From an uncultured bacterium (GTDB lineage: Bacteria > UBP14 > UBA6098 > B30-G16), in NCBI GenBank assembly GCA_965552135.1, contig CBEVQY010000011.1:864-64863 (forward strand): DNA of 64,000 bases, written 5' to 3'. The stretch's first letter is position 1, and every line of letters starts with the position of its first letter. This document shows positions 13,848-64,000 of this stretch, piece after piece. The notes under the pieces are model-generated. The model saw only the letters and a program-made list of their open reading frames with translations, had not been told where the DNA came from and did not search any database. The translations under genes and the position numbers were made by a program.

Positions 13848-13854
13848 TTTCCCT

Positions 13855-24252: not shown

Positions 24253-24301
24253 TTGTTTTTTTGTTTTTAGACTACTCTGCTATTACCAGGGAGGGGGTTA
24301 T

Positions 24302-25669: not shown

Positions 25670-25945
25670 TACTTCGGGTGGGCGACCGCGATTTCCCGCC
25701 ACCGGCGCCTCCGCTTGGCGCGGCGGATTTTCGCTCACAGAACATCCCGTTGTGGCCGTAGGACTCGCATTCCAACAAGCGCGTTGTGAATCGAGACAGG
25801 ATGCTTTATTATATTCGAGGGCTTTGGGCGCGAGGCAGACGACGGGGTCTTCGCGTCTTAGGACCCATTTGAGGCTTTGGCGCTGGAACTTAGACGTGTT
25901 CGCCGAACACTACGGTGGAAAAACCTTCACATCGGGAGGGTCGAG

Positions 25946-37538: not shown

Positions 37539-40500
37539 ATGAGACGGTGGGCTTTTGGGGTTTTTGTTGTTTTGTTTGTTTTGGGCGTTGCCGGTGCGGG
37601 CTATTGGGAGGATTACGGTCTGCGTGCCGTTGAGTATGTGACTGATCCGAGCACGCCCACCATCGGTTCACAAACCGGTCTTCTGGATCCTCTTACTGGG
37701 CTTGTTTGGGTTGAGGATTGGGGTTCTTTCCCTGCCGACACGCCCCGCGTTCAGAACGATTCTGTGGCGGGTACTTACAACGGCAGCTTTTTCTACAACA
37801 CTGCGGTGGTCGTTTTGGGTGAGGGTGCCACGGGGATCTCGACGGCTCTGGGGCATCTTGCGGTAAACTACGTCTTCCACGGCAGGGAGGATGCTGCAGA
37901 CAGCCTCGACTTCCCCGGCGCTGGTTCGGGCATTGAGCCTTGGTGGAGCAGGACGGTGCCGTTCTACAACGGATATTTCGATTTCCCAACCCGTCTGCTT
38001 GTGCCCGACGCCGCCTTCTGGAACAGGAACCCCGCCATCTCCGACTGGCCCTCGGACACGGATGAGGTCACCCTCGAGTGGATGCTTTGGGACGCCATCT
38101 ACCTCGTCTACAGCGGCGACCCGTTCTACCAGGACGAGGTCGACTCGATAATAGCGGGCATTATGGCAAGCCCGTGGTGGGATCCAACAGACAGCATCCT
38201 CCTTTCGGGGGCGCCTGATCCGTATCTCACATCCCTTTGGCTTATTCTGCTTGCCAAGTACAACGAGGTTTACGGCACGACATCCCTTCTGCGCACCACC
38301 GCTGAGGGTGACTATACGCCCGACCTTGACTACAGCTTTTACAGGCGGCTTGCGGAGAAGGCGGCGGAGTATCTTCACACAGACGGGATGAACTATCTCG
38401 TCACCAACTACGGCTCCGATGGTTGGCGCGCCTTGGGCGCGAAGGATGCCGCAGAAGGGCTTGAGAACTACGAGGCTTTGGCGTTCCTTATGGCTTTCTC
38501 CCTCGTGCACGACACCACAAACGCCTACTTCACCTTTGCCACCTACGTTCTCGACGCCGGCGCCGACAACGACGACGAGCCATGGGGGTTTGTCGCCAAC
38601 ATCGGCACCTACGCCGCAAGCCTTGGACCCGTGTACTTCCCACTCACCGATAACTGCTTCGACGGGATGTTCACCATCCTTGCGCTGAAGGAGTATCACG
38701 ATTTCGTTTTGCCCTTCGATTTCGACGAGGCGGACACCTGCGCCGACTGGATTCGCGAGATAGCCGAAAGCCTTGTTGTCAAGTACTGGGCGGACAGCGC
38801 GGGCAGGTTCATCCACGACCCGCACACGCTCACAATAGTTCCCACAAACGGCATCGCCGGCTATTCGATGCTCCAGGTGCCGAGGCTTGAGATAGTTGAC
38901 GTTGTCTCTGACCTCCCCAACGTTGGTCCTGGCGCGCCTGGTCCGGACTACTACGCCAACCGCGGGCAGAACCACACCGTTTCGGTCACCGTCGTTGCCC
39001 ATCACACCATAGCGAGCAACGAAGACACCCTTTGGCTCTACCGCACCGATTGCTTCGGTGGTCCTGCGCCCTTCACGTGGCAGGCTCTGCCCGATATGTC
39101 CCCCGGCGATACCGTTGTTCTGAGCTTTGCGGTGACGGAGCCTATGTGCGTCACCACGCCGGCGAACGACCACATTCAGGCTGTTTTGAACGGTCCACAC
39201 ACGTCGGGCTACAGCGTTGTGGACGACGACATAACGATTGAGGTCGATGCGCCTGCGCAGCTTAACGTCGACGACGTCTACGCCGTCGCCGACACGCTCG
39301 GGGTGGGGTACATGGAGCCGTACTTCACCATGGGTCAGCTCTTCTGGCTTGCGGTCGACGTTACGAACAACGGCGACGCAACCGTAAGGGACGTATCCTT
39401 CGACCTCACAAGCTCGAGCATCTACGGCTGCGCATCGAGCTTCGACCCTACCTACACCTTCGCCGACGTGAACATTCCCGCAGGGGGCAGCGCCACCTTC
39501 TACCTCCCCATAACCGCTGATCCCGACGATCACGGCGTCGTCGGCACCGACGACGAGGTGTTCACAGTTGCCGCAAGCGGCGTCGATATGAACACATCGG
39601 GACCTTGCTCGGTAACATACACCGACGACGACGACTCCATAGGCATCGTTATGCCGCCCTCGCTGAGGGTGATAGGCTGGGAGAGCTGGGCTTTGGGCTA
39701 CACCGCCGACGGCGTGCCCTGGGTTAGCGCCGATATGTTCAGCGAGTACATCGTTTGGGTTGTCTCCGACTCCGGCGACTACGCCGTCGCCGACTCGCTC
39801 TGGGAGTACGCCTCGGGGCTCGACTTCTTCTCGGGGATGTTCGACAACATGGTCGTCGTGCTCTTCGATATTATGAACCCCTCTTTCGTCACCGTCGATA
39901 CCGCTGCACCTGGCGATACGGTTGGGTTCGACTTCTGGATTTGGGCGACCAGCCCCATCGATGAGGACACCGCCGATATGGCGTTTTACGCCCACTTCCA
40001 CGACGCAAACGTCTGGACGGCGCCGGAGCCTCCCACAAGTCCCGTTGTGGACACGCTTCTGCACGCCATCGCTGTGGATGTTACTGATCCCGTTGTGTCC
40101 CCTGTGGCGCCGGCGGGGTCCGGTGATCCCTGGCCTGCGGACGACACCATCAGGGTCACCGCAACCGATAACTTCTCCGGCGTTGCCGAGGTCCGCGGGT
40201 ACATCGTGCGGGCGGACTACAGCCAGTACTGGATCCCGGACGGCTGGGGCGGATGGATGTGGGATCCGAGCTACGACGAGTTCGCGTTCGAGTACGACAC
40301 GCTCGACAACTGGAAGCTTGAGATCTATGAGCCCACGGGCGGATACAACTACTACATCGTCCTTTGGGCTGTCGACAGCGCCGGAAACACAAGCGATACC
40401 GTCCGCATTGCCAGAGGGTCGGTGGCTTACCTCAACATCTACGACGTGATAACCGGTCTTGTGAAGGAGGTTGATCCGGGCGAGAAGTGGGAGGCAGACT

Positions 40501-43500: not shown

Positions 43501-45524
43501 TTGCGTACGGTCTTGAGTTCGGTTCGACCTTCGGCGATCCCGACTGCATCGACCTGCCAAGCTACCCCTACTACCTCACCTACGGCTGCGATACGATCTG
43601 GGTTACGGCGAGCTGTCCGCAGCTTGGGCTTGTGTTGTGGGTCGACGCGCCCGGCTCGGGCTACGACGAGGGAACGTCCGCACCGTTCGATGTGGTATCG
43701 CCGCTTGACGAGAGCATCTACGCCGAGGTGTACGACAACCCCGACGATCAGGGCGATACCCTGTGGCTTGTCCACACCCGCTCGAGGAACGACCTGCTCT
43801 ACGAGGGCGCCGACATCGACACGCTGACGACCTACGTGGTCGAGTACACCTACTGGGTCGACACCGACCTCGGGCCGGATACGAACTGGGTGCAGATCTT
43901 CCCGATCTTCCAGTACGAGAGCGGCGACACGCTGTTCTTCAAGGTCACCAACTTCGGCGACTTCAACGCCTACCGCAGGAGCATAATCATCCACGGCAGG
44001 ACGAAGGGCGTGACGCCCGTTGACCTTTACTCCTCGAGGATACTCATTGAACCTGTGGCGCCTGTGGACAATGTGCCTCCTGCGGCGGTATCGGACCTCA
44101 GGATCCAGCAGTCCGGCGGCAACGCGCACCTGTGGTGGGATGAAGTTACCACTGGCGTCGACGGCTCGCCCGAGATAGCGCCTGCCGAAAACATCGTCTA
44201 CTACGTCTTCCGCAGCGTTGGCAACCCGTACGACATCTCGACGTACACCTTCCTGGGGATGACCGACGTTCCCGCCTACGACGATCCGCTGCCCGCTTCG
44301 CCTGTGGCGCAGCCAACCTACTACTTCGTCCTCGCATACGACCACAACTACAACCAGAGCGACACATCGGAGATAGTTGGTCGCACAAGCTACGAGTTCG
44401 GCGTTGGTTGGTCGCAGATAGCCGTTCCGTTCGACGTGGAGTACGGTTCCGAGCCGCTTTTGGCATCTGAGCTTGACTCGTACCTCGGCTCTGCCGGCAT
44501 CGTTGCGATGTATCGCTACCAGAGCGGTCACTGGACGCCCGCGTACATCGAGGGGTCGTTCAACAGCGTGATCTCCGAGGGCAGCGAGGCGCTCACCGTC
44601 TACGGCTTTACCGCCACAACGCTTTCGCTGTGCGGTGACCTCATGCCCGCGCCTGTGTTCTCGTTCGAGCACGGGTGGAACCAGTTCTTCCTGCCGCTCG
44701 ACAGGCTCGATATAGGTGACGCGATAGACCTTATGAACAGCATCGACGCTTCGGTTGGGTGTCTCAGCGTTGCCCACAGGATCCCCGGCGGCGGCTGGCA
44801 GCAGCTTGTTGAGATAGGCGGCGTCTACTACGGGAACTTCGACGTTTACGTTGGTCAGGCGTACATGGCTTGGGCGACCTCTGCGGGCAACTGGCCGCCC
44901 AGCAAGGGATACGGCTTTGGCTCGATCGTTCCCGCTGGTCAGCCCGCGGATGCCCTGCCGCTTCCGAAGGCTCTGGTGGGCGATATCGAGGGCGCCTGGG
45001 AGCCCGTGCACTTCAAGCTCACCACCAAGGACGGACAAGTTCTCGTGACGGACGACGATCCCGGCTGCGCCGTCTACGACGGCAAGTTCATCGTGCAGGT
45101 GGGCAACATCGACTGGAGCGTGGGCGACGAGTACGTCCTTGTGCTCTACGCCGACGGCGGCGATGCGGTTGAGATCCCTGTGGTCGTCGACGGCTCACCC
45201 GCGCAGTACCTCGGCAAGTACCACCTTGCCGATGTGGCTTTGCCCGCTGCGTTTGCGCTGTACGGCGCTCGACCCAACCCCTTCAACGCCGCCACACAGA
45301 TACGCTTCGACGTGCCCAGCGATTGCAGGGTCACCGTCGAGGTCTACGACGTGGACGGTCGCAGGGTTGCCACGCTGGTCGACGGCGCTGTTGAGGCGGG
45401 AACACATTCGGTTGTGTGGCGCGGCACCGACGACGACGGAAATGACCTGCCCGGCGGAGTCTACTTCTGCAGAATGAAGGCTGAGGGCTTCTCTGCTGTG
45501 GAGAAGATTCTGTTCGTGAAGTAG
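37539..45524 (+). CDS. Giant secreted multidomain adhesin-like protein (2661 aa) with Big_5/SbsA-like Ig repeats and T9SS type-A CTD
   Basis: An AAGGAGGAG SD precedes the ATG. The signal peptide is MRRWAFGVFVVLFVLGVAGA. It has at least four ~110 aa repeats of the form 'D.T.P.V...ATDNFSGV...YWNGTSW...D.AGN.SD'. The C-terminus is 'ARPNPFNAATQIRFDVPSDCRVTVEVYDVDGRRV...GVYFCRMKAEGFSAVEKILFVK'. Confidence 0.8.
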   Translation: MRRWAFGVFVVLFVLGVAGAGYWEDYGLRAVEYVTDPSTPTIGSQTGLLDPLTGLVWVEDWGSFPADTPRVQNDSVAGTYNGSFFYNTAVVVLGEGATGISTALGHLAVNYVFHGREDAADSLDFPGAGSGIEPWWSRTVPFYNGYFDFPTRLLVPDAAFWNRNPAISDWPSDTDEVTLEWMLWDAIYLVYSGDPFYQDEVDSIIAGIMASPWWDPTDSILLSGAPDPYLTSLWLILLAKYNEVYGTTSLLRTTAEGDYTPDLDYSFYRRLAEKAAEYLHTDGMNYLVTNYGSDGWRALGAKDAAEGLENYEALAFLMAFSLVHDTTNAYFTFATYVLDAGADNDDEPWGFVANIGTYAASLGPVYFPLTDNCFDGMFTILALKEYHDFVLPFDFDEADTCADWIREIAESLVVKYWADSAGRFIHDPHTLTIVPTNGIAGYSMLQVPRLEIVDVVSDLPNVGPGAPGPDYYANRGQNHTVSVTVVAHHTIASNEDTLWLYRTDCFGGPAPFTWQALPDMSPGDTVVLSFAVTEPMCVTTPANDHIQAVLNGPHTSGYSVVDDDITIEVDAPAQLNVDDVYAVADTLGVGYMEPYFTMGQLFWLAVDVTNNGDATVRDVSFDLTSSSIYGCASSFDPTYTFADVNIPAGGSATFYLPITADPDDHGVVGTDDEVFTVAASGVDMNTSGPCSVTYTDDDDSIGIVMPPSLRVIGWESWALGYTADGVPWVSADMFSEYIVWVVSDSGDYAVADSLWEYASGLDFFSGMFDNMVVVLFDIMNPSFVTVDTAAPGDTVGFDFWIWATSPIDEDTADMAFYAHFHDANVWTAPEPPTSPVVDTLLHAIAVDVTDPVVSPVAPAGSGDPWPADDTIRVTATDNFSGVAEVRGYIVRADYSQYWIPDGWGGWMWDPSYDEFAFEYDTLDNWKLEIYEPTGGYNYYIVLWAVDSAGNTSDTVRIARGSVAYLNIYDVITGLVKEVDPGEKWEADWQHFYTCSVQVYNPNSFDLTRVTIGLRSSSPWVQIWTTTNPSWEYEVNYLTVANIPAGAHVWLEFEVCEASYNFTDTLVAFLYQADPGPSGEAVGQQVVDDDAFVVVERPAMVLVESTWVDPSDAPVSVEDTNLVTQRQPFTLWVRVCRGGRDEIDSVGIAVRNGDILKCQNLSDTSVVLYHSDFTTMSVTSTDFSGSDTLWCVDLPFEYVADTTDFGNCNARLMEDAFLSGIWFVDFDNWIYDRTNVSIAQLYYDDTLAYVSVLEPPRLDIVTAGLSGYQDTYTGRFWINSWDTLLVWVEVGNLVSSCPDDGRATADSLDVYPMPLALFDASWTDIGNGIAGLDAPYLRPDTLYPGQDSMLVYKLYWDGATPVYEGYVGYVVDTVYFHDMNWASQSYPAPWLFVDTTSSGDTVWISAEMDTISKFFLFGVGIDVTKPVVDVYAPSPVMYSSWTWPDSTKMLATDNFSGVVVNSVVCQITDPAGNYWNGTSWQVSPVWLTTVHLGGDTFAYELPDVADLIYDGYYTVIARCSDVAGNESDVDTLRFLYDSTNPIAVIDIPEDSMFFNCTDWGGTIRVHAWDTVGGVYDVSGVRKVYIAIEDTVRHLWWNAATSSWDVSATWIWNEMTYAGGEIWEFSGYTPPAPSYVFRLWTFADDNVLNYDGPTDTSLFVLDCQAPHSYITDYWWTDTPPAYSYFNDTLWTSYMGDEITGYVIDTITAVDDVRLAIYSELDGMWWDDEVGAFTSDVPVWFQPDWLWSSWWSAADMPALPDTFSLGEFFPGYNLHIVDTLWWHYFWTPPASGCYTVYVRAVDDLQNYEAGSGWDTTGATEYNTWSFAYDNTGPEVLYAYRPADGEVITHLDEWWDTLWVAVLDTYPSCGAVGTNDIDSVKISIQHLMGGIPYWWNGTSWSTSWSWVDMTPTGGMLWYYYLPRIVLESGTYNVQVRAWDVFGNLKEYYYNFTIFGMTGYLTIEPLWDPVFVGEPFPVVVTALNSPGDTNTSFAYGLEFGSTFGDPDCIDLPSYPYYLTYGCDTIWVTASCPQLGLVLWVDAPGSGYDEGTSAPFDVVSPLDESIYAEVYDNPDDQGDTLWLVHTRSRNDLLYEGADIDTLTTYVVEYTYWVDTDLGPDTNWVQIFPIFQYESGDTLFFKVTNFGDFNAYRRSIIIHGRTKGVTPVDLYSSRILIEPVAPVDNVPPAAVSDLRIQQSGGNAHLWWDEVTTGVDGSPEIAPAENIVYYVFRSVGNPYDISTYTFLGMTDVPAYDDPLPASPVAQPTYYFVLAYDHNYNQSDTSEIVGRTSYEFGVGWSQIAVPFDVEYGSEPLLASELDSYLGSAGIVAMYRYQSGHWTPAYIEGSFNSVISEGSEALTVYGFTATTLSLCGDLMPAPVFSFEHGWNQFFLPLDRLDIGDAIDLMNSIDASVGCLSVAHRIPGGGWQQLVEIGGVYYGNFDVYVGQAYMAWATSAGNWPPSKGYGFGSIVPAGQPADALPLPKALVGDIEGAWEPVHFKLTTKDGQVLVTDDDPGCAVYDGKFIVQVGNIDWSVGDEYVLVLYADGGDAVEIPVVVDGSPAQYLGKYHLADVALPAAFALYGARPNPFNAATQIRFDVPSDCRVTVEVYDVDGRRVATLVDGAVEAGTHSVVWRGTDDDGNDLPGGVYFCRMKAEGFSAVEKILFVK

Positions 45525-45532
45525 AGAGTCTG

Positions 45533-45563
45533 TGAGGGGGAGGGCTTGGCGCTCTCCCCCTCA
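45533..45563 (+). terminator. Stable GC-rich hairpin (10-bp stem TGAGGGGGAG/CTCCCCCTCA, 11-nt loop) immediately after giant gene 1; possible terminator/attenuator
   Basis: Direct reading shows a perfect inverted repeat. It is followed by AAAAGC rather than a T-run, so intrinsic-terminator function is uncertain. Confidence 0.35.
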
Positions 45564-45582
45564 AAAGCGCAAGGAGGGCGCG

Positions 45583-46230
45583 ATGAGGAAGGCGGGCTTG
45601 GCTTTGGTTTTTTCGCTGTTTGTTTTGGTTTTTGGTCAGGGTACGCCCCACACCTTCACCGGTCACGTTTTTAACGGCTGCGGCACCCCTCCTGCCCCGT
45701 CTTGCCTTACCTTCATCGCCTATGTCGAGGGGAGCGTCGATACAGTGCGCTACCCCGGCGACCCGAGGGCAACTTACTCCCCCGAGCTTGGCGGCGCGTG
45801 GACAGTTACGCTCGACGCAACGGCTCTGGAGAACGGAGACCTCTTCGTCATCGTCTTCGCCAACATTTGCAGCAGCACGGCGGGAATGGACACCGCAACG
45901 GTCGATCTCTCAGGGCCGGTTCAGGACCTTGGCACAACATATCTTTCGGCAATGGGATGCGGTGAGGGTGGCAAAAAGCCCGCCCTTTCGCTTTCCGTGA
46001 CGCCAGCGGTTTCGAAGGAGGGATTTTTGATCGAGGTTTTGGGCGAGGGATTTGTCGAGGTTGAGGCGTTCAACATTTTAGGTCAGTCTTTGGGCAAGCT
46101 TTACGTTGGAAGGTGCCCCAACGGCGCATCCTTCGTTTGGAGACCTGAGGATGTTTCCGGTGGCGTTTACTTTATCAAAGCTACGGACGGCAAAAACGTT
46201 TTAGTAAGAAAGGTTTATTTCGTTCCATAG
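45583..46230 (+). CDS. Small secreted protein = shared ~100-aa N-terminal 'QG-x-PH' module fused directly to T9SS type-A CTD (215 aa)
   Basis: An AAGGAGGG SD precedes the ATG. The signal peptide is ...LVFG|QGTPHTFTGHV. The N-module is homologous to the N-termini of the next two giant genes. The C-terminus is 'VEAFNILGQSLGKLYVG...GVYFIKATDGKNVLVRKVYFVP'. Confidence 0.75.
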   Translation: MRKAGLALVFSLFVLVFGQGTPHTFTGHVFNGCGTPPAPSCLTFIAYVEGSVDTVRYPGDPRATYSPELGGAWTVTLDATALENGDLFVIVFANICSSTAGMDTATVDLSGPVQDLGTTYLSAMGCGEGGKKPALSLSVTPAVSKEGFLIEVLGEGFVEVEAFNILGQSLGKLYVGRCPNGASFVWRPEDVSGGVYFIKATDGKNVLVRKVYFVP

Positions 46231-46259
46231 GTTTGTGACATCAAACAAAGGAGGCAGAT

Positions 46260-49200
46260 ATGCGTCGGTGTGGGATTTTTGTGTTTGCGGCTTTGTTGGT
46301 TTCCGCTCTTTGGGGTCAGGGGGTTCCCCACACCCTCTCGGGAACGATTCAGCTGCAGGAGGGGATGTATCCCGAGGCGGGGTGCCTGTACATAACTGTT
46401 TCGGTTGGAGGGGACGTTTACTACATCCCCGGCGACGGCACCTACGACTCGGAAAACGGCAGATGGGTTCTGGTCGTAAGCGATGCTATTCCGGGAACTG
46501 AGGTCGTCGTCCAGGCGATAGATAGCTGCTGGTACGAGGACGGCACGATAAACGGGATGGTGTCCGACTCCTTCACCACCGATCTCGGTCTTCTTGTGCT
46601 CAGCGAGATCGAGGGCATTCGCCCCTACCTCTACGACGTCTCCGTTTCGCCCACAACGGGATACGTCGAGGATGTGTTCAGGTTCGAGGTCACCTACGAG
46701 AGTGATCCCTGGAACCGCGCTCCCTCGTTCGTTCACCTTTACATAGACGGGAGCTACTTCACCTCCGCATCCCCCGTCGATCCCGGCGACAGTGAATACC
46801 GTGACGGAGCAGACTACTTCGTCGAGTTTTCCGGAAGCCTGATCGGCAGAGGGGAACACACCTTCTTCTTCTACACCGAGGATGAGGCTGGCTTTCCTGC
46901 CTGGAGCGAGACGCTTTCGTTTGTCGTGGCGAACCATCCGCCCGTTCTGACTTCGGCTTGGCTTGAGGTAAGCCCCGAGCCGCCGACCGAGTCCTCCACG
47001 ATAACGTGCGTTGTCGGAACCGCCACCGACAGCGAGGGCGACGCCATCTCGTTCCTGTACGAGTGGTACGTCAACGGCTCCTTGGTGGGCGTTGACACAA
47101 ACTCCATCGACGGCGACTACTTCGACAAGCACGACGAGGTCTGGTGCGTCGTCACCCCGTACGACGGTCGCGACTACGGCGATCCTGTGGAGACGGAGCA
47201 CGTGATCATCGAGAACACGCCGCCCGGACCGCCGTCCATCGCCATCGATCCGCCCAGCCCGTTCGACTTCGAGGACGTGACCGCGCTTGTCGTGGTCGAT
47301 GCCCCCGACATCGACGGCGACGCTGTTTCGTACAGCTATCAGTGGCTTTTGGACGGCGCGCCTGTGGCAACGGGAAGCGTTTTGGATAACTCGCTTACGA
47401 CCACTGGTCAGAGCTGGACGCTTGTGGTCACGCCCAACGACGGCGAAGCCGACGGCGAAAGCGCCGAGCTTGAGTTCACAGTGGGCGGACCGGTCCTTTC
47501 CGACGGATATGTGTCACCGCCGAGCGGGCATCCGGGAACGACCGTGTTTACGTACTACGTCACCTACTCCAACAGCCGCAACTATCCGCCCGGCTACGTG
47601 CTTGTGGACATAGACGGCACGACGTACAACATGTATCCCGCCGACACGAGCGACGACAACTACATCGACGGCGCGGTCTACATGTATCAGACGACGCTTT
47701 CTTTGGGCAGCCACCAGTTCCGCTTCTCGGCGGTCGACGACCACGGCGACGTCGCTGTGGGGATGGAGGACTACATCTCCGGTCCCGAGATGACCAACAC
47801 GCCGCCTGTGATCGACGAGGTTTCGATAGAGCCTTCGTCGCCCACGGTGCTTGACGTTATAACCGCCTCGGTCGTTTCGTGGCACGATGACGACGGCGAT
47901 GAGGTGACCTTCACCTACAGCTGGTACGTCAACGGCACCGAGGTTCCGGGTGCGGTTTCGGCAACGCTTACGAGCGACTACTTCTCCAAGGGCGACGAGG
48001 TTTGGTGCGTGATAACGCCGCACGATCCTTACGACGACGGCGAGCCTGTGGAGACTGACCACGTCTTCGTCGTCAACGCTGCGCCTTACGCCGAGGGCGT
48101 TTCGATCGACGTTGAGCCTGCGGGCGAGGCGACGGAGCTTTCGACGCTCGTCGCCGTCGTTTCCGGCGCAGGCGACCCCGACGACGATCCACTGTCGTTT
48201 AGCTACACCTGGTACGTCAACGGCACGCCCCTCGCCCTGCCCGGAGAGACCAACTCCATCGACGGCACCTACTTCGACAGAGGCAACGACGTCTTCGTCC
48301 AGGTTGCGATCTCCGATGGCGACACCGAGATAGTCCTCACATCGGCAACAGTTACCATCGGAAACGCCCTGCCTGTGGTGGAGGACTTCGGCATAGAGCC
48401 CGAAGAGCCCTACACCGACGACGAGCTCCGCGTCCGACTCGACTACTACGACCCCGACGGCGACAGCGTGGAGGTTCAGTACCTTTGGTATCGCAACGGC
48501 GAGTTCTACGGCGAGGATCCCACCGTTTCGCCCGAGGTTACAAGCCACTTCGACGTGTGGGTTTTGGAGGTGAGGCTGCTTGACGGCTTCGTTGAGGGCG
48601 AATATGTGTCGCTTTTCGATACCGTGGAGATACAGAACTCCCTCCCCGAGGTTGGGGATTTCGTGGATACCATAACGGTTGGCGGCGCAAGCTACGTTGG
48701 TCACCTTGAGGCGAGTGATCTTGACGGCGACCCGCTTTCGTTTGCGGTGGTTGATGGACCTTCGGGCATCCACGTTGCCGCCGACGGCGCAGTGCTGTGG
48801 AACGTGCCCGAGGTCGACACCCTAACCGCGTTCGACGTCACGATAAGGGTGAGCGACGGCTACGACTACACCGACGTAAGCTTCGTGCTTTGGGTGTATC
48901 CTCTTTGGGATCCCATCTTCGCCCCCACTGATCTTGTCGCCTCTGGTGGGCACGTTGGCGTGATACCGCTTAGCTGGAATCCGCCTGCGGCGTTCTCGGA
49001 GCTGCCTTACATGCCCATCTCGTTTGTGGGCTACGAGGTTTGGCGCGCTACGAACCCCGACCCCGAGGTCGGCGACTGGACGATGCTTGCCGAAACCTTC
49101 GTGCCCAGCTATGCCGACGTCGACGTCGAGCCGTACGAGGTTTATTACTACTACGTCGTTGCGGTTTACGATTTGGGCATAGGCGCGCCATCGAACACCG

Positions 49201-52200: not shown

Positions 52201-52694
52201 GCGGCGAGGTGCCCAAGGCGTACTTCGCCGAAGACGGTTGGGTCCTTTCGCGGTGCATAAACCCCGACGCCAGCTGGAATCTGGTATTGGCTGAGGATGC
52301 CACGGTTCGCTTCGACGTTCCGGAGGGGGTTCAGCTCGTCGTCGACGGTGAGGCTGTGTCGGGCGAGGTTGCGCTTTCGGCCGGTGAGCACAAGCTTTAT
52401 GCCCGCGCCCTGCCTGTGGAGTTTGCGCTTGAGCGAAACGTCCCCAACCCCTTCAACGCCGCAACCGAGTTCCGCTTCGCCCTTCCGGAGGATGCAGAGG
52501 TTCGCATAGATATCTTCGACCTTGCGGGGAATCACGTTCGCACGCTCGTTCGCGGCAAGCTTGAGGCGGGGTATCACTCGGTCGTTTGGGATGGCACCGC
52601 CGACGACGGCTCCGAGGCTGGCTCTGGAGTATATCTGTGCCGCATGAAGGCGGGAGGATTTTCCGCGACCAGGAAGGTCGTTTTGGCGAGGTAG
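46260..52694 (+). CDS. Giant secreted multidomain protein (2144 aa): QG-x-PH N-module, six He_PIG/cadherin-like repeats, Fn3, CBM9-like, cohesin-like domains, T9SS type-A CTD
   Basis: An AAAGGAGG SD precedes the ATG. The signal peptide is ...ALWG|QGVPHTLSGTI. Repeats of the form 'D.DGD..SF.Y.WYVNG' occur six times. A cohesin-like segment reads 'VVPVYVGSLEAMGITTLGMTVSCDP'. The C-terminus is 'VPNPFNAATEFRFALPEDAEVRIDIFD...GVYLCRMKAGGFSATRKVVLAR'. Confidence 0.8.
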   Translation: MRRCGIFVFAALLVSALWGQGVPHTLSGTIQLQEGMYPEAGCLYITVSVGGDVYYIPGDGTYDSENGRWVLVVSDAIPGTEVVVQAIDSCWYEDGTINGMVSDSFTTDLGLLVLSEIEGIRPYLYDVSVSPTTGYVEDVFRFEVTYESDPWNRAPSFVHLYIDGSYFTSASPVDPGDSEYRDGADYFVEFSGSLIGRGEHTFFFYTEDEAGFPAWSETLSFVVANHPPVLTSAWLEVSPEPPTESSTITCVVGTATDSEGDAISFLYEWYVNGSLVGVDTNSIDGDYFDKHDEVWCVVTPYDGRDYGDPVETEHVIIENTPPGPPSIAIDPPSPFDFEDVTALVVVDAPDIDGDAVSYSYQWLLDGAPVATGSVLDNSLTTTGQSWTLVVTPNDGEADGESAELEFTVGGPVLSDGYVSPPSGHPGTTVFTYYVTYSNSRNYPPGYVLVDIDGTTYNMYPADTSDDNYIDGAVYMYQTTLSLGSHQFRFSAVDDHGDVAVGMEDYISGPEMTNTPPVIDEVSIEPSSPTVLDVITASVVSWHDDDGDEVTFTYSWYVNGTEVPGAVSATLTSDYFSKGDEVWCVITPHDPYDDGEPVETDHVFVVNAAPYAEGVSIDVEPAGEATELSTLVAVVSGAGDPDDDPLSFSYTWYVNGTPLALPGETNSIDGTYFDRGNDVFVQVAISDGDTEIVLTSATVTIGNALPVVEDFGIEPEEPYTDDELRVRLDYYDPDGDSVEVQYLWYRNGEFYGEDPTVSPEVTSHFDVWVLEVRLLDGFVEGEYVSLFDTVEIQNSLPEVGDFVDTITVGGASYVGHLEASDLDGDPLSFAVVDGPSGIHVAADGAVLWNVPEVDTLTAFDVTIRVSDGYDYTDVSFVLWVYPLWDPIFAPTDLVASGGHVGVIPLSWNPPAAFSELPYMPISFVGYEVWRATNPDPEVGDWTMLAETFVPSYADVDVEPYEVYYYYVVAVYDLGIGAPSNTDHAFCVEGELVSWFSPFTYTAPPVLDGSIDEAEWTDAMSYAYSVDGRDFKLYFKHDNGHLYIAVECVSDETLSPDDMLMVSVDDDNNDRWPSTGPSSEGEYRIKALSYGVEVTFQGIWGTFPDDIVRDVRGPAEGLWGAASDADGYVVYELAIPIGDGAAGINIDELGRWVGLRVAVYDVDSYSWILLLPAASDPEDPSSFGELYLESGAAPGVLCIEPVELSITLRQGESRSLVLNVCNCDAGYLNYTIHEACAPSGGLMRTASMNIVAYIDDASLVPQALSALGYTAAIYTDPMEFYNAVSSGSWDLVIVSALDVSEPAVWNAALGAYLDGSKLLIQTPDLDATSDLGVVDMLGLGLGEDLGDRGCALTWDLPAHPFFHIPMEVPPSVECIEGDYEDYGDNLIPGDYTVLASFDLYPYPNNAAIVFDPEAGVVVNSFVLSPLNDSDEDGIIDGVELLVNEISGLLPCEDVPWLTVNPAGGLLSAHDCDEVGVVFDATDLTPGHYYAYLMIHTNDPTSPMVAVPCHLEVVEPEPRELVLSFPDSVVMGCAGDEVVVPVYVGSLEAMGITTLGMTVSCDPAVAQPVDVEAMMGELTSIDAGPGTITFEISSEYPLPGGGPLALVHFLINDVGVGVTTTLGISGVTYNPDAYVTDVYTYPGELMVTSCERHWRVTLEFQVYGERADEITIGVEPGATDAFDEEWDEENVPPAEGWFDVWSDISGFDSEHPHLSVDIRDADATEIHWYIETGDSAGKVEWSFDDEVDLSRMGSLFLYCGDDVVDMKLATFYFYGAGQDIEIVYRITGEQPFTFHFDAGYTMFSLPLMLDDYSVNDLFPGNLGCWYYDNSLNTWVPADVLQVGVGYIILFTSPAEFTVWGTPVESLVLNLSAGWNLIGMVASPVDFSDPDDDPDGSILGSPQHAYYYDQAAGTYLLTDELLPGVGYFVAALNPCVLYLPGSGGMGKASPEVKPQWTGRAVVGDRVLEFGVGAWDVAPIPPVLPGGEVPKAYFAEDGWVLSRCINPDASWNLVLAEDATVRFDVPEGVQLVVDGEAVSGEVALSAGEHKLYARALPVEFALERNVPNPFNAATEFRFALPEDAEVRIDIFDLAGNHVRTLVRGKLEAGYHSVVWDGTADDGSEAGSGVYLCRMKAGGFSATRKVVLAR

Positions 52695-52870
52695 GCGTTT
52701 GGCTACAGGTGGCGGTGGAGCTTGAGTCTAAACGAGCCTTTGGGAAGCCTTCCTTTGCGGGTATGCGGCTTGCTTTTGTGGGTCGTATACCCGCAAAGTT
52801 TATATCGTGGCGCCTTCGTGGGCGGCGCGTGCAGTTTCGGTGGAGATAGGGAGCGTTCCAGGAGGTTAAG

Positions 52871-55800
52871 ATGAGGCGAGTTTGGTTTTTGGCGCTTTTT
52901 ATGGGGATTTTGTGTTTTGCTTTCGGTCAGGGTGAGCCGCACTCGATCGTCGGTCAGGCGGAGAACTCCGATCACACCCCCATTCCCGAAGGCTGCGGCA
53001 GGTTCGTGGCGTATCCGTATCCATCCGCCTCCGACACTGTGACGCAGGACTCCGACGGCTGCGGCTTTTCGGGAAGCGACTGGTGGGTTCAGATCGCCGA
53101 CTTCGAGCTTGAGGACGGCGATACGGTCGCCATAAGGCTCGAGAACTCGTGCAACGGCGAAACGCTCCTTGTGCTTGTGGAGGTTGATCTCTCCGTGCCC
53201 GTGCAGGACGTTGGATTGGTCACGCTTGTTCCCGGCGCGCCCGTGGTGACCGTCCTTTACCCGAACGGCGGGGAGAGCTTCGAGTTCGGCGACCCGATAG
53301 TTATCCGGTGGACTGCCTCGCCGGGGATAGCTGCGGTGAACGTTCTTTTCTCCTCCGACGGCGGCGCAGGCTGGGACACCGTCGCCCTGGGCGTCGATGC
53401 GTCGTCGGGGGAGTATTCCTGGACGGCTCCCTCCGTGGGGTCTGACGAGTGTCTGGTAAAGGTCGAGGACGCCTCCGATCCTGCGGTCTACGATGTGTCC
53501 GACGGCTTCTTCTCCATTGCGCCCGCGCCCTTTGTTGATCTTACGTCGCCTGCGGGCGGCGAGCACTACTACGTTGGCGACACGGTGACGATAAGCTGGA
53601 GCGGCGGGGGGATTTCGGGCGTCGACCTGTTCTTCTCCTCCGACGGCGGCGCGACGTGGGCTTTTGTGGACAGCGGTCTTCCACCGTCGGCATCTTACTA
53701 CTGGACCGCGCCCGATGTTGTCTCCGACAGCTGCATTATACGTGCCTGGGCAACGGACGACACAACCGTCGTCGACTACTCCGGCATCTTCTCCATCGAC
53801 ACCCTCCCCGCGGTCGACAGCATTCCGCCCGACCCCGTTGTTGACCTCGCCGCCGACTCCGTCACTTACACCGCCGTGCTCCTGTCGTGGACCCTCACCG
53901 GCGACGACGGAGTCGTGGGAACGCCTTCGTCGGTGGATCTGCGCTACAGCACGTCGTACATAACCGAGCTTGGTTGGCCTTACTGCACGCCGGTTTCCGG
54001 CTTGCCGCCCGTGGATACCGCCGGCACCCGCCAGAGCGTTTGGGTGGACGGGCTTTTGCCCGGTCAAACGTACTTTTTCGCGATGAAGGTCTGCGACGAG
54101 GTCCCCAACTGCAGCGACCTTTCGAACGTCGTCGAGGTGACGCTCCCAACTCCGCCCGATACGACGCCTCCTGGGGCTTTCGAGCTTTCTGTCTCCGAAG
54201 TTGGTTGCGATAGGGCAACAATAAGCTGGGTTGCCCCCGGCGACGACGGCGACGAGGGCACCGCCGACCACTACGAATTCAGATACGCCGACTTCGAGCT
54301 TACCGCCGAAAACTTCGACTCGGGCGAGGTTGTTTCGGACGTTCCCGAGCCGCAGCCTGCGGGCACGGAGCAGAGCATCGTCATCTTTGGACTTGCGGCA
54401 TCGACGCACTATTGGGTTGCGGCGTACGCCTACGACGAGGAGGGGAACCGCTCTCCGCTTGCTGTGGTTGACTTTACGACGGGCGTTTGCGCCGACACGA
54501 TCCCGCCGGCTGCCATAACGACCCTCACGTGCAGCGACTTCAAGCCCACGGGGATACAGCTTGAGTGGATGGCGCCGGGGGACGACTTCTTCTCCGGCAC
54601 AGCCGCGGCGTACGAGGTCAGGTACTCCACCGAGCCGTTCGACGAGGAGACCTGGGTTTACGCCGACTCATACGCCCTTGCAATGCTCCCGAGCCCCGCG
54701 GGTACGCTGGAGCACGCGTGGGTTGAGGGTCTTGAGCCGGCAACTACGTATTATTTCGCCGTGTTCGCCTTCGACGAGGCAGGCAACAGGTCCCATCCTG
54801 GGATCGTCGTCGACTGCGTTACGATGGGGGTCTCTTCGCCCGTCGCGGACGTGTACACAACCGAGGATGCCTCCGATATGTTCCTCGCCGACCTCGCCGA
54901 TGTCTTCGTTCCCGGCGGGCTTGACTACTCCATCGCAAGCGGCGAGGGCGTGACGGCTTACCTGCCCGATAGCGAAGGAACCGAGGTCTGGCTCTCGCTC
55001 GAACCCGATTACAACGGCGAAACCTTCGTCATCCTCTACGCGAGCCACCTTGGCTACATCGTTGCCGACACAGTGTTGGTCCACGTTGCGCCGGTGAACG
55101 ATGCGCCGCGGTTTACCTGCGGCGTTCCCGAGTCGGTCGCTGTGCCCGGCGTCGACTTCGACTTCGTCTTCACCGCGGAGGACGTCGACGGCGATTCGAT
55201 CTGGTTCGTGCTCGCCGAAGGCGCACCGGGGATGTCACTCGCCCCAACGGGCTCCCTCCACTGGATACCTCCCGCAACCGAGGGACACTACGACGTCACC
55301 GTCTTCGTCACCGATGGGGTGGACACCGCCTACCTCGGCTTCCCCGTGAGGGTGTACAAGCTTACCGACTCGATCTTCGCCCCGCGGAACCTCGTGGCGC
55401 ACTCGGGCTACCTGGGCGCGATACCCCTCACCTGGGACGTCCCCGAGGCGGTCATTCTGGGGTTCCCCGTCCACCTGGTCGGATACCAGGTGTATCGCAG
55501 CGCGTACCCCGACTCGGAGCCCGTCTTCATCGCCTCAAGCGACGTAAACGTCTACAACGACGCATCCGTCACGTGTGGGTATGTTGAGTACTATCGGGTG
55601 AAGGCGGTTTACGACGAGCCTTCGTTCGTAAGCGCGTACTCCAACACAGACGGCGGCGCCTGCGATTACACATCCGATCGCATATACTCCTCGTGGACGC
55701 TGGAGCCTGTGCTCGTCGACGGCTCCATCGACGACGAGGCGTGGAGCAGTGCCACCGTCTTCCAGCTCGAGGACGGCTACACCCTCGGGTTCGTCAACAC

Positions 55801-57814
55801 CGCAAGCTACCTTTATGGGTTTGTTGAGTTTACCTCGGCGCCCGAGGATAGCCTTGAGTTCTCCTTCTGGTTCGACGACGACAACTCGGGCTTCTGGGAC
55901 GGCATCCCCTCCGACGAGGGCAGGATATTCTTCCGCTTTGGCGACACGGTACGCGCGTACTTCCAGCCTGTGGCGAACGTTGGCGGCGTTGCCGCGAGGG
56001 GGACGCCGACCCCTATGAGCCAAGCCACGTCGGCTTGGGCGATTGTGGGAAGCCACGCTGTGCTTGAGTACGCAATCCCCCTCGGCGACGACCAGCACTT
56101 CGGGTGCCTGCCGGGGGACTCCTCTGGCGTGATGTTTGAGGCGGAAAGCCCGAGCGTGGGGGTTTTGTTCCGCTGGCTGCCCACCTCGGACGAGCTTGCG
56201 CCAGCGACCTACGGCAGGCTCATCCTTGGATCTCCGAGCGGCGTGCCGTCTATCATAGTGGCGCCGCTTGAGTTCGAGGTCGAGCTCGAGCAGGGAACGT
56301 GGACGCAGGTTACCACCTACGCCCAGAACATGGGCGAGGGAACGGGATTTATCGCCCTCTCCAGCGCGCCGGGGTGGATATCTGTAAGCCCCGAGGAGGA
56401 GTTCCTCTACCCGGGAGTTGCCACGCCCATAAACGTAGTGATCTCCGCCGACATGGAACCGGGCGACTACATCGGCTACGTCAATTTCTACACGACGGAC
56501 CCCGTTGAGCCGCTGCGGCAGGTTGAGGTTATCCTTCACGTCACGCCCGTTGAGCCCGAAAACCACCTGATCATCTCACTTCCTGAGGTCGTTTACGCCT
56601 CTGCCGACAGCGACGTCGTCGTTCCGGTCGAGGTGGGTGAGCTCTACGATAACCTCATCACCCGCGTTCGCTTCACCGTTTTGTGCGATCCCGATGTCGT
56701 TTTGCCCGTTGGTGCTTTTGCAGGGGGCGTTTTGCCGGGCGACTGGAGCGTGGATGTGACCTCGGCGGGCGAGGATCACATAACGGTCGACGTCCACGGC
56801 ATCGAGCCTTTGCCCGCGCCGGGAGAGATCGTGAAGCTTCGCTTCTCTGTCTCACCGAGCGCTTTCCGGGGCGCGGCATCTCCGCTTGAGTTCTCGGAGC
56901 CCGTGGTCAACGACGGCTTCCCGTATCCCACCACGCAGAACGGCTTGCTCGTCGTGGGCGAGGACGTCGTTCCGTACTGGTCGGCGATGGTGACGCTCGT
57001 TCTTCCCGGCGGCGTTCGCGCCGACTCCGCATCGTTCGGCGTGCACCCGCTCGGCACCGATGGATATGATCTTGCTATCGACCGCCTCGATCCGCCAGCG
57101 CTCCCCGACGGCGCCAATGTCTTCTTCCTCGCAAGCGATTACTACCACCTCCAGCGCGATATCCGCAGCGCCGAAGACACCGTCGTAACGTTCCCGCTTG
57201 TGACGGAGCAGGCGGGATACATCGAGTGGGACGTTAACCGCGTCTGGAGCGGCTGCTATGTGGGAGACACCCTCGATATGAAGACCGTATCGTCGGTGGC
57301 GGTGAGCGCCGGCGATACCGTTGTCATCTACTACCACCGCAGCGTGCCCTTCAGGTTCGTTGTGCACCTCCTCCGCGGCTGGAACATGGTTTCGATACCC
57401 ATTGCAGGCGATGCGTTCGAGCTCTCCGAAGTCTTCCCCGACGCCATACCACCCGCATATTACTACGACCCCGAGGCTGAAACGTACGTCCCCACGACGA
57501 CGCTTGAGCCGGGGAAGGGATACTGGGTTCTCATAAACGAGGACCACGACTACGAGCTTTCGGGCGAGCCACTGCTTCGGTACGAGCTTGAGCTTCCCCC
57601 CGGCTGGTACATGATCGGTGCGCCCGCCGAGGCGGTCTATTGGTCGGAGCAGAGCATAGAACCGCCCGACGCATTCCTCGAGGGAACCCTTTTCGGACAC
57701 ATAACCTCGCCGCCGTCGTACTATGTGGCGGATGTCCTCGTTCCCGGAGAGGCGTTCTGGGTGCTTTTGCTGCGAAGCTGCACCGTAAGCGTTTCGGCGA
57801 TATACTCACACTAA
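52871..57814 (+). CDS. Giant secreted multidomain protein (1647 aa): QG-x-PH N-module, Asp-box (SxDGGxTW) repeats, 3x Fn3, He_PIG, CBM9-like, cohesin-like; no recognizable T9SS CTD
   Basis: A CAGGAGG SD precedes the ATG. The signal peptide is ...CFAFG|QGEPHSIVGQA. It has 2 repeats with 'FSSDGGAGW/FSSDGGATW'. Fn3 modules read 'TPPGAFELSVSEV...'. A cohesin-like segment reads 'VVVPVEVGELYDNLITRVRFTVLCDP'. It ends '...SAIYSH' without a PNPFN or basic tail. Confidence 0.75.
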   Translation: MRRVWFLALFMGILCFAFGQGEPHSIVGQAENSDHTPIPEGCGRFVAYPYPSASDTVTQDSDGCGFSGSDWWVQIADFELEDGDTVAIRLENSCNGETLLVLVEVDLSVPVQDVGLVTLVPGAPVVTVLYPNGGESFEFGDPIVIRWTASPGIAAVNVLFSSDGGAGWDTVALGVDASSGEYSWTAPSVGSDECLVKVEDASDPAVYDVSDGFFSIAPAPFVDLTSPAGGEHYYVGDTVTISWSGGGISGVDLFFSSDGGATWAFVDSGLPPSASYYWTAPDVVSDSCIIRAWATDDTTVVDYSGIFSIDTLPAVDSIPPDPVVDLAADSVTYTAVLLSWTLTGDDGVVGTPSSVDLRYSTSYITELGWPYCTPVSGLPPVDTAGTRQSVWVDGLLPGQTYFFAMKVCDEVPNCSDLSNVVEVTLPTPPDTTPPGAFELSVSEVGCDRATISWVAPGDDGDEGTADHYEFRYADFELTAENFDSGEVVSDVPEPQPAGTEQSIVIFGLAASTHYWVAAYAYDEEGNRSPLAVVDFTTGVCADTIPPAAITTLTCSDFKPTGIQLEWMAPGDDFFSGTAAAYEVRYSTEPFDEETWVYADSYALAMLPSPAGTLEHAWVEGLEPATTYYFAVFAFDEAGNRSHPGIVVDCVTMGVSSPVADVYTTEDASDMFLADLADVFVPGGLDYSIASGEGVTAYLPDSEGTEVWLSLEPDYNGETFVILYASHLGYIVADTVLVHVAPVNDAPRFTCGVPESVAVPGVDFDFVFTAEDVDGDSIWFVLAEGAPGMSLAPTGSLHWIPPATEGHYDVTVFVTDGVDTAYLGFPVRVYKLTDSIFAPRNLVAHSGYLGAIPLTWDVPEAVILGFPVHLVGYQVYRSAYPDSEPVFIASSDVNVYNDASVTCGYVEYYRVKAVYDEPSFVSAYSNTDGGACDYTSDRIYSSWTLEPVLVDGSIDDEAWSSATVFQLEDGYTLGFVNTASYLYGFVEFTSAPEDSLEFSFWFDDDNSGFWDGIPSDEGRIFFRFGDTVRAYFQPVANVGGVAARGTPTPMSQATSAWAIVGSHAVLEYAIPLGDDQHFGCLPGDSSGVMFEAESPSVGVLFRWLPTSDELAPATYGRLILGSPSGVPSIIVAPLEFEVELEQGTWTQVTTYAQNMGEGTGFIALSSAPGWISVSPEEEFLYPGVATPINVVISADMEPGDYIGYVNFYTTDPVEPLRQVEVILHVTPVEPENHLIISLPEVVYASADSDVVVPVEVGELYDNLITRVRFTVLCDPDVVLPVGAFAGGVLPGDWSVDVTSAGEDHITVDVHGIEPLPAPGEIVKLRFSVSPSAFRGAASPLEFSEPVVNDGFPYPTTQNGLLVVGEDVVPYWSAMVTLVLPGGVRADSASFGVHPLGTDGYDLAIDRLDPPALPDGANVFFLASDYYHLQRDIRSAEDTVVTFPLVTEQAGYIEWDVNRVWSGCYVGDTLDMKTVSSVAVSAGDTVVIYYHRSVPFRFVVHLLRGWNMVSIPIAGDAFELSEVFPDAIPPAYYYDPEAETYVPTTTLEPGKGYWVLINEDHDYELSGEPLLRYELELPPGWYMIGAPAEAVYWSEQSIEPPDAFLEGTLFGHITSPPSYYVADVLVPGEAFWVLLLRSCTVSVSAIYSH

Positions 57815-57839
57815 GGCGCGCTACGGCACGAAAAGCCTC

Positions 57840-58010
57840 TGCTTTCTGGCGGAGGGTCCTTTTCATCCCCGTGGCGCCGCGGTCCTCTTCGTCTCCTCGG
57901 CACCCGCGGGTCCTCTTCATCTTCTTGGCGCCGGGCGTTCTCCTCACCTCCCCGGCGCCCTCCTAACGGGGACCCCTCGGCTCACTAACGGGGATCCCTC
58001 GGCCCGTCAG
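57840..58010. repeat. Intergenic degenerate direct repeats between convergent giant genes (3x GGTCCT[CT]TTC[AG]TC[TC] ; 2x 19-nt CTAACGGGGA[CT]CCCTCGGC each with internal GGGRYCCC palindrome)
   Basis: Direct reading shows the repeats. They are non-coding and lie between stop 57814 (+) and stop 58066 (-). Confidence 0.5.
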
Positions 58011-58065
58011 TTGCGCGGGCTTTTTGCCGGCGTCGGTTTGCCTCGCCGCCGAACGCGGAAAGCGG

Positions 58066-64000: not shown

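Follow-up and report, generated by a model that had tools for sequence, protein, structure and literature searches.

Results

Organization of the locus

The window analysed here is a 64,000-nucleotide stretch of DNA from an uncultured bacterium, for which a placement in the FCB group outside the Bacteroidia is plausible. ORF calling identified five consecutive long reading frames at positions 37539-64000, equal to 41% of the window. Genes A (37539-45524, 2661 aa), B (45583-46230, 215 aa), C (46260-52694, 2144 aa) and D (52871-57814, 1647 aa) all lie on the plus strand, and gene E (58066 to beyond 64000, minus strand) is convergent to them, a reading frame of at least 1977 aa that is open at the window edge and has its 5′ end, along with the genes upstream of it, outside the window. 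GC3 across A-E ranges from 0.63 to 0.79, like that of the housekeeping genes of the window. An AGGAGG-type Shine-Dalgarno sequence stands 4-6 nt ahead of the ATG in each of A, B, C and D; the A/B, B/C and C/D spacers measure 58, 29 and 176 nt, and 250 nt separate the convergent ends of D and E. This layout agrees with the original prediction, which had described an array covering more than 40% of the window, the lengths of A, C and D together with a giant gene E, a strong Shine-Dalgarno sequence for each gene, and short spacers of which one carries a perfect hairpin.

That perfect 13-bp hairpin lies in the A/B spacer (45533-45563, plus strand) with no T-tract behind it; it folds at -33.3 kcal/mol (z -2.86, with none of 200 shuffles equally stable) and was not called by the terminator scan. 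The C/D spacer holds a larger hairpin of 20-21 bp (52753-52798, plus strand) followed by TTTATAT, which is the top-scoring site of the same scan in a spacer that folds at -67.7 kcal/mol (z -4.9), and which is terminator- or attenuator-like. Upstream of A is a conserved neighbour, an 85-aa DUF4321-type small membrane protein (37107-37364, plus strand), for which an NCBIfam search returned no match and which is 49-67% identical by tblastn to the PF14209 (DUF4321) gene directly upstream of A in four related assemblies (L001, L002, L003 and L028).

Signal peptides and sorting domains

By inspection, A-D begin with MRR or MRK, continue with a hydrophobic segment and then show a putative cleavage site at small residues; in B, C and D this site is followed by Gln. 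C-terminal sorting domains (CTDs) were judged against cut-offs of 23 bits for TIGR04183, 27 for FlgD_ig, 27 for CHU_C and 35 for TIGR04131. The type A T9SS CTDs of A (aa 2579-2661; 45273-45521, plus strand) and C (aa 2060-2144; 52437-52691, plus strand) clear both type A models, with 23.5 and 26.0 bits for TIGR04183 and 43.9 and 50.5 bits for FlgD_ig, respectively. The CTD of B scores 16.8 bits, under the cut-off; its modelled fold matches the CTD of mirolase (1.8 Å superposition) as well as PorU and PorZ, and B-like relatives clear PF18962, so that the orthologues and the structure model together offset the sub-threshold score and B probably ends in a type A CTD.

Gene D gave no Pfam or NCBIfam match to a CTD, none of the frames of the 250-nt spacer behind it encodes one, and its reading frame ends directly past the last shared module. 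Its orthologues in L001, L002 and L012 agree with it in length and C-terminal tail and likewise have no CTD, those in L005 and L010 (1885-1894 aa) retain one, and the distant D-like proteins P0157 and P0164 bear FlgD_ig CTDs; D has thus lost its CTD in the clade of the window. An origin of the shortened D as a pseudogene or assembly truncation was rejected, since the end point and tail motif are common to four assemblies with 52-60% identity over the full length. The earlier claim of five T9SS cargo proteins therefore stands clearly for A and C and with a sub-threshold score for B; D lacks the sorting domain that defines such cargo, and E carries a different, type B CTD. No T9SS machinery gene (PorK/L/M/N, SprA/Sov, PorU/V) was found within the 64-kb window, so the assignment to T9SS export is drawn entirely from the sorting domains.

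Domain architecture and paralogy

Searches of Pfam and NCBIfam detected no catalytic domain in A-D. More than 90% of the length of A, which has a signal-peptide-like start and its CTD at the end, is without a Pfam match, and the two databases returned nothing beyond weak Big_13 and the CTD. A contains three internal Big_13/OmpL47-like repeats (aa 825-953, 1401-1527 and 1873-1942). At a pI of 4.05 the protein is strongly acidic; Trp makes up 4.1% and Lys 1.0% of its residues. A pI of ~4 with 0.5-1% Lys is found throughout A, C and D and sets them apart from the window's cytoplasmic proteins. Blastp similarity between A and C is confined to the last 112 aa, the CTD, at 51% identity, and a homologue search with A returned two true relatives, the remainder matching the CTD only. 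A candidate homology between the 'GW[SN]Q' C-terminal region of A and the GWN units of C and D was dropped at an hhalign probability of 5-11%.

Gene B is the minimal member, in which a short linker joins the signal peptide and N-module to the CTD. The N-module spans the N-terminal ~105-120 aa common to B (45637-45957), C (46317-46634, aa 20-125) and D (52928-53230), all on the plus strand, with 31-37% identity and E-values of 1e-6 to 1e-15 by blastp, which confirms the predicted N-terminal module in three of the five genes. Its alignment shows invariant P, H and G and two Cys. An exhaustive HMMER profile search among 1.84e9 proteins found only 87 cluster representatives, and in nearly all of them the match sits at the protein N-terminus; the N-module is a private N-terminal beta-sandwich of B, C and D.

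From its N-terminus, C comprises a signal peptide, the N-module, about seven tandem Ig-like repeats of ~95 aa, a He_PIG-type Ig and an Fn3 module, followed by a CBM9-fold domain, an Ig, an alpha/beta insert, another Ig, a cohesin, a beta-sandwich, two 'GWN' units and the type A CTD. D runs from signal peptide and N-module through two Big_7-like Ig, three Fn3, a He_PIG-type Ig and a further Fn3 to a CBM9-fold domain, an Ig, a cohesin, a beta-sandwich and two 'GWN' units. The original prediction that these two genes share the same blocks in the same order is substantiated by two long collinear blastp alignments at ~30% identity (C 803-1277 with D 754-1213, E 1e-33; C 1440-1933 with D 1154-1639, E 1e-41). 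Ten full-length homologues of C were found at 37-100% identity. All-against-all comparison of the five proteins thus recovered the N-module of B, C and D and the C/D blocks; A shares only its CTD, with C, and E is unrelated.

Fn3 and Ig-like modules were detected by Pfam, and the description of these products as modular secreted or surface proteins tied to T9SS is supported. In the Pfam searches CBM9 had no match and the cohesin of C fell below the cut-off. The alpha/beta insert of C (50001-50615, plus strand; flavodoxin-like, GldG/DUF4350-like) is absent from D. Its strands and helices alternate over residues 446-650 of the structure model, and single orthologues gave weak matches to ABC_transp_aux (7e-4) and DUF4350 (2e-3); for the insert itself, a profile search against PDB sequences yielded nothing significant and Pfam yielded marginal matches only. 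The block formed by the post-cohesin region and the 'GWN' units likewise had only marginal Pfam matches, and its profile search against PDB sequences matched a designed Kelch protein weakly (E 3.5e-4), no stretch of that match being significant.

Cohesin, calcium loop and CBM9-type domains

Structure modelling identified a nine-stranded jelly-roll cohesin fold in C (aa ~1517-1645; 50808-51194, plus strand), with a paralogue in D (aa ~1232-1360; ~56564-56950, plus strand); each of the two proteins has one cohesin, not a tandem array. Against PF00963 the domain of C scores 22.7-23.3 bits, where the cut-off is 24.1. The cohesin HMM matches seven of 11 relatives (best 5.7e-10), and distant cassette members reach 29-41 bits, above the cut-off. 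At the end of the alpha/beta insert, C contains a single dockerin-like calcium loop (aa 1426-1437; 50535-50570; DSDEDGIIDGVE) that is kept in all six of the C orthologues with aligned sequence here, and a motif scan of all six frames found exactly this one F-hand-like loop in the window. The motif behind the earlier hint of cohesin-dockerin docking is therefore present and conserved; no window protein matches Dockerin (PF00404), and neither a two-repeat dockerin nor another cohesin ligand was identified in the window, so such docking is still conjecture. The CBM9-fold beta-sandwich of C (aa ~992-1186; 49233-49817, plus strand), with a paralogous block in D (aa ~940-1135), was recognised in a structure model of moderate confidence (mean pLDDT 68); by sequence, a nine-member profile run against PDB sequences did not find CBM9.

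Gene E

Gene E encodes at least six Ig-like (Big_5-type) repeat units of ~215 aa and one SprB repeat match, and ends in a type B CTD that scores above the cut-off for CHU_C (34.9 against 27) and below it for TIGR04131 (18.5 against 35). No gene follows E on its strand in the window, and a SprF/PorP-like partner is accordingly absent there. The original prediction counted E as part of the unit. This assignment was rejected: E has no blastp similarity to A-D, and 26 related loci yielded no tblastn match to it at E<=1e-5.

Conservation of the cassette

At least 10 other assemblies show the arrangement (purQ)-DUF4321-A-B-C-D in synteny and collinearity, at 29-63% identity. The order A-B-C-D is kept in L001-L012 and L027-L029, with purQ-DUF4321 upstream where the contig reaches, and the sources of these relatives are hydrothermal sediments at Guaymas and Auka as well as other metagenomes. 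Full-length collinear orthologues are 31-63% identical for A (29-31% in L027/L028), 38-62% for C and 35-60% for D. The least conserved part of A is its N-terminal ~450 aa, which is replaced in L002, and one clade of C orthologues has ~293 extra residues just after the N-module that we read as extra tandem Ig-like repeats; this insertion and the loss of the CTD of D are the only architecture changes reported against an otherwise stable arrangement. N-modules cluster by protein type and not by genome, with 33-74% identity within a type against 18-36% between types. Because the orthologues remain collinear and in the same order down to 29-38% identity and their N-modules group by protein type, the duplications predate the lineage, and the synteny across at least 10 other assemblies indicates that they are ancient and the cassette stable. 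A-D are thus clustered, not scattered, in related metagenome-assembled genomes.

Discussion

Giant CTD-bearing proteins are common in metagenome bins of the FCB group and are usually dismissed as 'hypothetical adhesins'. The analysis presented here points to a more defined entity, in which A-D constitute a conserved, lineage-specific cassette of huge, acidic and probably non-catalytic T9SS-type surface proteins whose role would most likely be adhesion or scaffolding. In an export model based on the T9SS biology established in Porphyromonas and Tannerella (PMC5445135, PMC10202324), Sec would carry A-D over the inner membrane, T9SS would take A, B and C through the outer membrane, and the PorU sortase would cut off their CTDs and attach them to anionic LPS by the newly made C-terminus. 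This would leave the variable N-terminal ends, the shared N-module among them, facing outward, in a long extended coat or fibre in which the CBM9-fold domain may bind glycans and the cohesin may recruit a protein partner to the surface. Since D has lost its CTD yet is otherwise conserved, its arrival or retention at the surface presumably depends on C or B as a partner that carries a CTD, which is speculation. A more specific version, which we hold to be quite unlikely as formulated, is a hetero-oligomeric appendage in which A, B and C are CTD-anchored and D is bound to them non-covalently by way of the cohesin fold or the N-module; if true, it would represent a cohesin-based surface assembly in a diderm without canonical dockerins.

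Other readings of the cassette place different weight on the same features. The S-layer of Tannerella forsythia is made of TfsA and TfsB, two large T9SS cargo proteins encoded side by side, and is missing in T9SS mutants (PMC4175972); A, C, D and perhaps B could by analogy build a regular surface layer or coat. We consider this unlikely, as searches of Pfam, NCBIfam and PDB found no similarity to known S-layer proteins, and ~20 Ig-like domains arranged as beads on a string, combined with a CBM and a cohesin, are more typical of fibres and adhesins than of lattices. The cohesin and CBM9 folds in the models and the anchoring by CTDs would also suit a cellulosome-like scaffold, with the cohesins of C and D recruiting dockerin-bearing hydrolases encoded elsewhere and the CBM9-fold domains holding the cell on polysaccharide, and a precedent exists in Ca. 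Stygibacter of the Cloacimonadota, an FCB candidate phylum, for which a CTD-anchored cohesin scaffold was proposed (PMC8542988). This reading is very doubtful given the single cohesin per protein where a scaffold would have several in tandem, the isolated F-hand loop as the closest approach to PF00404 among the window proteins, and a nearby S8 peptidase and other secreted proteins that carry CTDs or nothing, not dockerins. Non-cellulosomal cohesins are, moreover, reportedly widespread (Peer et al. 2009, as referenced by PMC8542988).

The original prediction read the array as a locus that diversifies through duplication and the exchange of modules, which could be extended to a contingency locus whose surface variation stems from recent events of this kind in five paralogous cargo genes. 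The paralogy of B, C and D, the long blocks shared by C and D, the additional residues in one clade of C, the replaced N-terminal region of A in L002 and the loss of the D CTD in one clade would all fit such a process. It is nonetheless highly improbable: orthologues are closer to one another than paralogues are, so the paralogues, at only ~30% identity, are far older than the species splits, and at least 10 other assemblies show no difference in the number of genes, their order or the order of their domains, while E is neither related to A-D nor conserved at the locus. The picture of ongoing diversification thus gives way to one of long-term stability.

What distinguishes this cassette is the combination, in a stable and deeply conserved four-gene unit, of a private N-module, a cohesin, a CBM9-type domain and a paralogue without its secretion signal. 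It provides a defined target for the study of surface building and substrate attachment in uncultured bacteria of hydrothermal sediments, and bears on the question of whether diderm bacteria use cohesins in settings other than cellulosomes. The family is new but its kind is familiar, and the cassette alone reveals no new mechanism.

Comparison with known systems places the cassette and its neighbour among several types of surface protein. Gene E resembles the SprB-type gliding adhesins, the type B cargo of Flavobacterium and Cytophaga, in being giant and repetitive with Ig-like units, a SprB repeat and a CHU_C CTD; it differs in falling under the TIGR04131 cut-off and in being followed only by the spacer and convergent D where a SprF/PorP-like gene would be expected. 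The scaffoldin-like protein of Ca. Stygibacter and the clostridial scaffoldins (PMC8542988) have in common with the cassette a giant protein in which a cohesin is joined by a module of the carbohydrate-binding type and by a T9SS CTD that attaches it to the cell, but the Stygibacter system has tandem cohesins, CBM2/CBM3 and dockerin enzymes in the genome, whereas C and D have a single cohesin each and a CBM9-type fold, and the 64 kb contain no dockerin. TfsA and TfsB (PMC4175972) are alike in being very large, non-enzymatic, T9SS-dependent surface proteins encoded by adjacent same-strand genes; they are smaller (~1200-1400 aa), without cohesin or CBM9 and with no detectable sequence relationship to A-D. 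The closest correspondence in export is with CTD-anchored type A cargo such as the gingipains of P. gingivalis and the mirolase and KLIKK proteases of T. forsythia (TIGR04183/PF18962), which likewise combine a signal peptide with a C-terminal Ig-like sorting domain of ~80 aa. Relative to these proteases, the large cargoes of the cassette are non-catalytic, multi-domain proteins of 2100-2700 aa, and they belong to a fixed four-gene cassette that includes a member without a CTD, in a host that lies, as far as can be told, outside the cultured Bacteroidota.

Gene organization and genomic setting

Positions 37539-64000 are occupied by five long ORFs: A (37539-45524, 2661 aa), B (45583-46230, 215 aa), C (46260-52694, 2144 aa) and D (52871-57814, 1647 aa) on the forward strand, and the convergent E on the reverse strand, which spans 58066 to beyond the window edge with its frame still open at 63999 (at least 1977 aa). 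GC3 is 0.63-0.79 for all five, matching the housekeeping genes of the window, and antisense ORFs show the inverted pattern. An AGGAGG-type ribosome-binding site lies 4-6 nt 5' of the ATG in each of A to D, with spacers of 58 nt (A/B), 29 nt (B/C) and 176 nt (C/D). The A/B spacer carries a perfect 13-bp hairpin (45533-45563, -33.3 kcal/mol) without a T-tract; the larger C/D hairpin (52753-52798, 20-21 bp, then TTTATAT) was the top terminator-like site of the region in a terminator scan. In the convergent D/E spacer (57815-58065), a direct repeat of ~26 nt occurs three times (57854-57933) and a 19-nt repeat, CTAACGGGGAyCCCTCGGC, twice (57963-58003).

The remainder of the window is ordinary chromosome, encoding secD, secF, thiL, a MiaB-like enzyme, recF, an FAD flavoprotein, sucD, a GGDEF protein, yidC, pfkB, prsW, batA, an nrnA-like DHH protein and purQ. 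An S8 subtilase (1275 aa, signal peptide, no detectable T9SS C-terminal sorting domain (CTD)) lies within 4902-10652, followed by three small ORFs (8713-9270, 9293-9835, 9846-10652), all of which have a hydrophobic N-terminal segment and match no family. Close upstream of A, a 685-aa BatA-N/VWA/CARDB protein (32321-34378, reverse strand) is separated from the array by cytidylyltransferase, DHH phosphoesterase and purQ genes.

Composition is extreme in A, C, D and E, with pI ~4.05 and 0.2-1.0% Lys against 2-7% in window housekeeping proteins (0.5-1% Lys and pI ~4 across A, C and D); Trp reaches 4.1% in A, and B is milder (pI 4.99, 3.7% Lys). In B, C and D, the residue after the predicted signal-peptide cleavage site is Gln (..FGQG, WGQG; 45583-45650, 46260-46330, 52871-52940), as it is in four or more further secreted proteins encoded in the window (FSQQ, FAQS, FAQP, EAQL; 4902-4990, 12688-12400 on the reverse strand, 24290-24350, 27948-28030). 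This resembles the 'Bacteroidetes Q-rule', which is notable for this lineage: according to PMC5837995, the rule applies to Bacteroidetes and does not extend to the FCB group as a whole.

Paralogy and module content

All-against-all blastp with whole proteins and 120-aa fragments upheld the paralogy described in the original prediction. The N-terminal ~120 residues are common to B, C and D (31-37% identity), and C and D share two blocks in conserved order at ~30% identity (C 803-1277 with D 754-1213; C 1440-1933 with D 1154-1639). Likeness between A and C is confined to the last 112 residues (51% identity), and E showed no similarity to A-D, its body consisting of at least six repeat units of its own, each ~215 aa.

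The earlier module calls were likewise judged good, with numerous Fn3 domains, ~seven tandem Ig-like repeats of ~95 aa in C (aa 120-800), two Big_7-like and three Fn3 domains among those of D, and three Big_13/OmpL47-like repeats in A; over 90% of A was without family assignment, including when five orthologues were scanned. The ~105-aa N-terminal module of B, C and D (N-module) is a macroglobulin/Ig-like sandwich of generic type with two conserved Cys and, at the start of the mature protein, an invariant Pro-His. The window copy of the cohesin domain scores slightly below the HMM threshold, 7 of 11 relatives match (best 5.7e-10), and distant cassette members score above threshold; the CBM9 assignment found no support at the sequence level. 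Both C and D carry two 'GWN...PG.GY' units ahead of the C-terminus; the searches run assigned these units no fold.

Between two Ig domains, C carries an extra alpha/beta, flavodoxin-like insert with marginal GldG/DUF4350-type similarity, terminating in the F-hand-like calcium loop DSDEDGIIDGVELLVNEI. This loop, the sole one of its kind in a six-frame scan of the window, is kept by the six C orthologues whose alignment covers that segment; the dockerin-like calcium motif proposed earlier is real as a single loop. A dockerin requires two F-hand repeats, and the same scan found no two-repeat dockerin in the window.

Sorting domains

The expectation of five T9SS cargo genes stands in part. A and C exceed the type A CTD model (TIGR04183, 23.5 and 26.0 bits; cut-off 23) and also pass FlgD_ig. 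B, at 16.8 bits, falls short of the same cut-off; its relatives pass PF18962 (28-36 bits), and its AlphaFold model (mean pLDDT 85.8) ends in a seven-stranded sandwich. D has no CTD by HMM, its ORF stopping right after the last module shared with C, and none is encoded in any of three frames of the 250-nt spacer 3' of it. An assembly accident was rejected because D orthologues in three related loci (L001, L002, L012) end at the same point with the same short tail. Those of a more distant clade (L005, L010) run on into a normal 'PNPFN...' CTD, which distant D-like proteins also possess. E carries a type B CTD (CHU_C 34.9, cut-off 27; TIGR04131 under its cut-off). The scores therefore describe two clear type A cargo proteins and a probable third, together with a paralogue that lacks a CTD and an unrelated cargo protein of type B; sorting domains are thus present on A and C, and probably on B, among the four cassette members.

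Upstream of the array, type A cargo is clear at 13522-16314 (27.2 bits; Cleaved_Adhesin and Omp28 domains) and 25877-27931 (37.3 bits), and slightly below threshold at 24161-25669 (21.2 bits) and 27948-30536 (22.0 bits; F5/8 type C domain), so T9SS cargo is common in this genome region and not special to the array. The C-terminal ~50 residues of the latter two are near-identical. No T9SS machinery genes were found in the 64-kb window.

Conservation across related genomes

Full-length homologues of C show 37-100% identity. Scanning one genome per GTDB species, we found seven species representatives, from Guaymas, Auka/Pescadero and co-assembly projects, with full-length C. Contigs bearing C homologues read purQ, DUF4321, A (2600-2750 aa), B (204-219 aa), C (2144-2441 aa), D, and tblastn showed the A-B-C-D order kept wherever the contig was long enough. 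Orthologues are collinear end to end (identity 31-63% for A, 30-43% for B, 38-62% for C, 35-60% for D). An exhaustive N-module profile search among 1.84 billion proteins returned only 87 cluster representatives, nearly all matching at the N-terminus. They fall into two size classes, ~200-240 aa for those resembling B and ~1600-2400 aa for those resembling C or D. Two of the more distant B-like genes (23-32% identity) are flanked by A-like and C-like giants, one with DUF4321 upstream. The gene directly downstream of D in the most distant clade encodes a 558-aa Omp85/POTRA outer-membrane protein (L003/L004 21913-24627; L005 13879-15555); D is intact in L005 (1885 aa) and split in L003 and L004 (1528 + 326 aa), probably through an assembly or frameshift difference.

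N-modules are 33-74% identical between orthologues versus 18-36% between same-genome paralogues, and the B/C/D duplications therefore predate the divergence of all these lineages. Sequence comparison indicates an architecture stable since those ancient duplications. Three changes were seen: in one clade C carries ~293 extra residues directly behind its N-module, which we read as additional Ig-like repeats in tandem; in L002 the first ~450 residues of A, a poorly conserved stretch, have been replaced; and D has lost its CTD in the clade to which the window belongs.

Discussion

On the best-supported reading, A-D form a conserved cassette whose products are very large surface proteins, acidic, poor in lysine and non-catalytic. 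The genome comparisons alter the interpretation, pointing to a stable, ancient cassette rather than a shuffling one: the proposal of a locus diversifying by duplication and module exchange is disfavoured by the synteny and collinearity of A-D, and its inclusion of E fares no better, as the conserved unit is A-D, E is dissimilar to it, and tblastn found no E homologue in any related locus. A cellulosome-like enzyme scaffold, with a proposed precedent in Ca. Stygibacter (PMC8542988), is weakened by a single cohesin per protein and the lack of dockerins in the window. The cassette proteins might alternatively form an S-layer, a rival with a precedent in TfsA/TfsB (PMC4175972).

For the conserved surface-protein cassette, the T9SS biology of Porphyromonas and Tannerella serves as the model for export and anchoring (PMC5445135, PMC10202324). 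By analogy, export of A, B and C would run through Sec and the T9SS; their processed C-termini would be attached to anionic LPS, and their N-terminal ends would point outward. We infer surface anchoring from CTD presence, and the ligands from fold: CBM9-fold domains suggest glycan binding and cohesin-fold domains protein recruitment. Our guess is that CTD-less D may reach the surface, or stay there, through capture by a partner. Should surface assembly of a new type prove to depend on the cohesin or the N-module, the significance would be more than modest; among known systems, A-D is a new family inside a well-known kind, the T9SS-dependent giant surface proteins.
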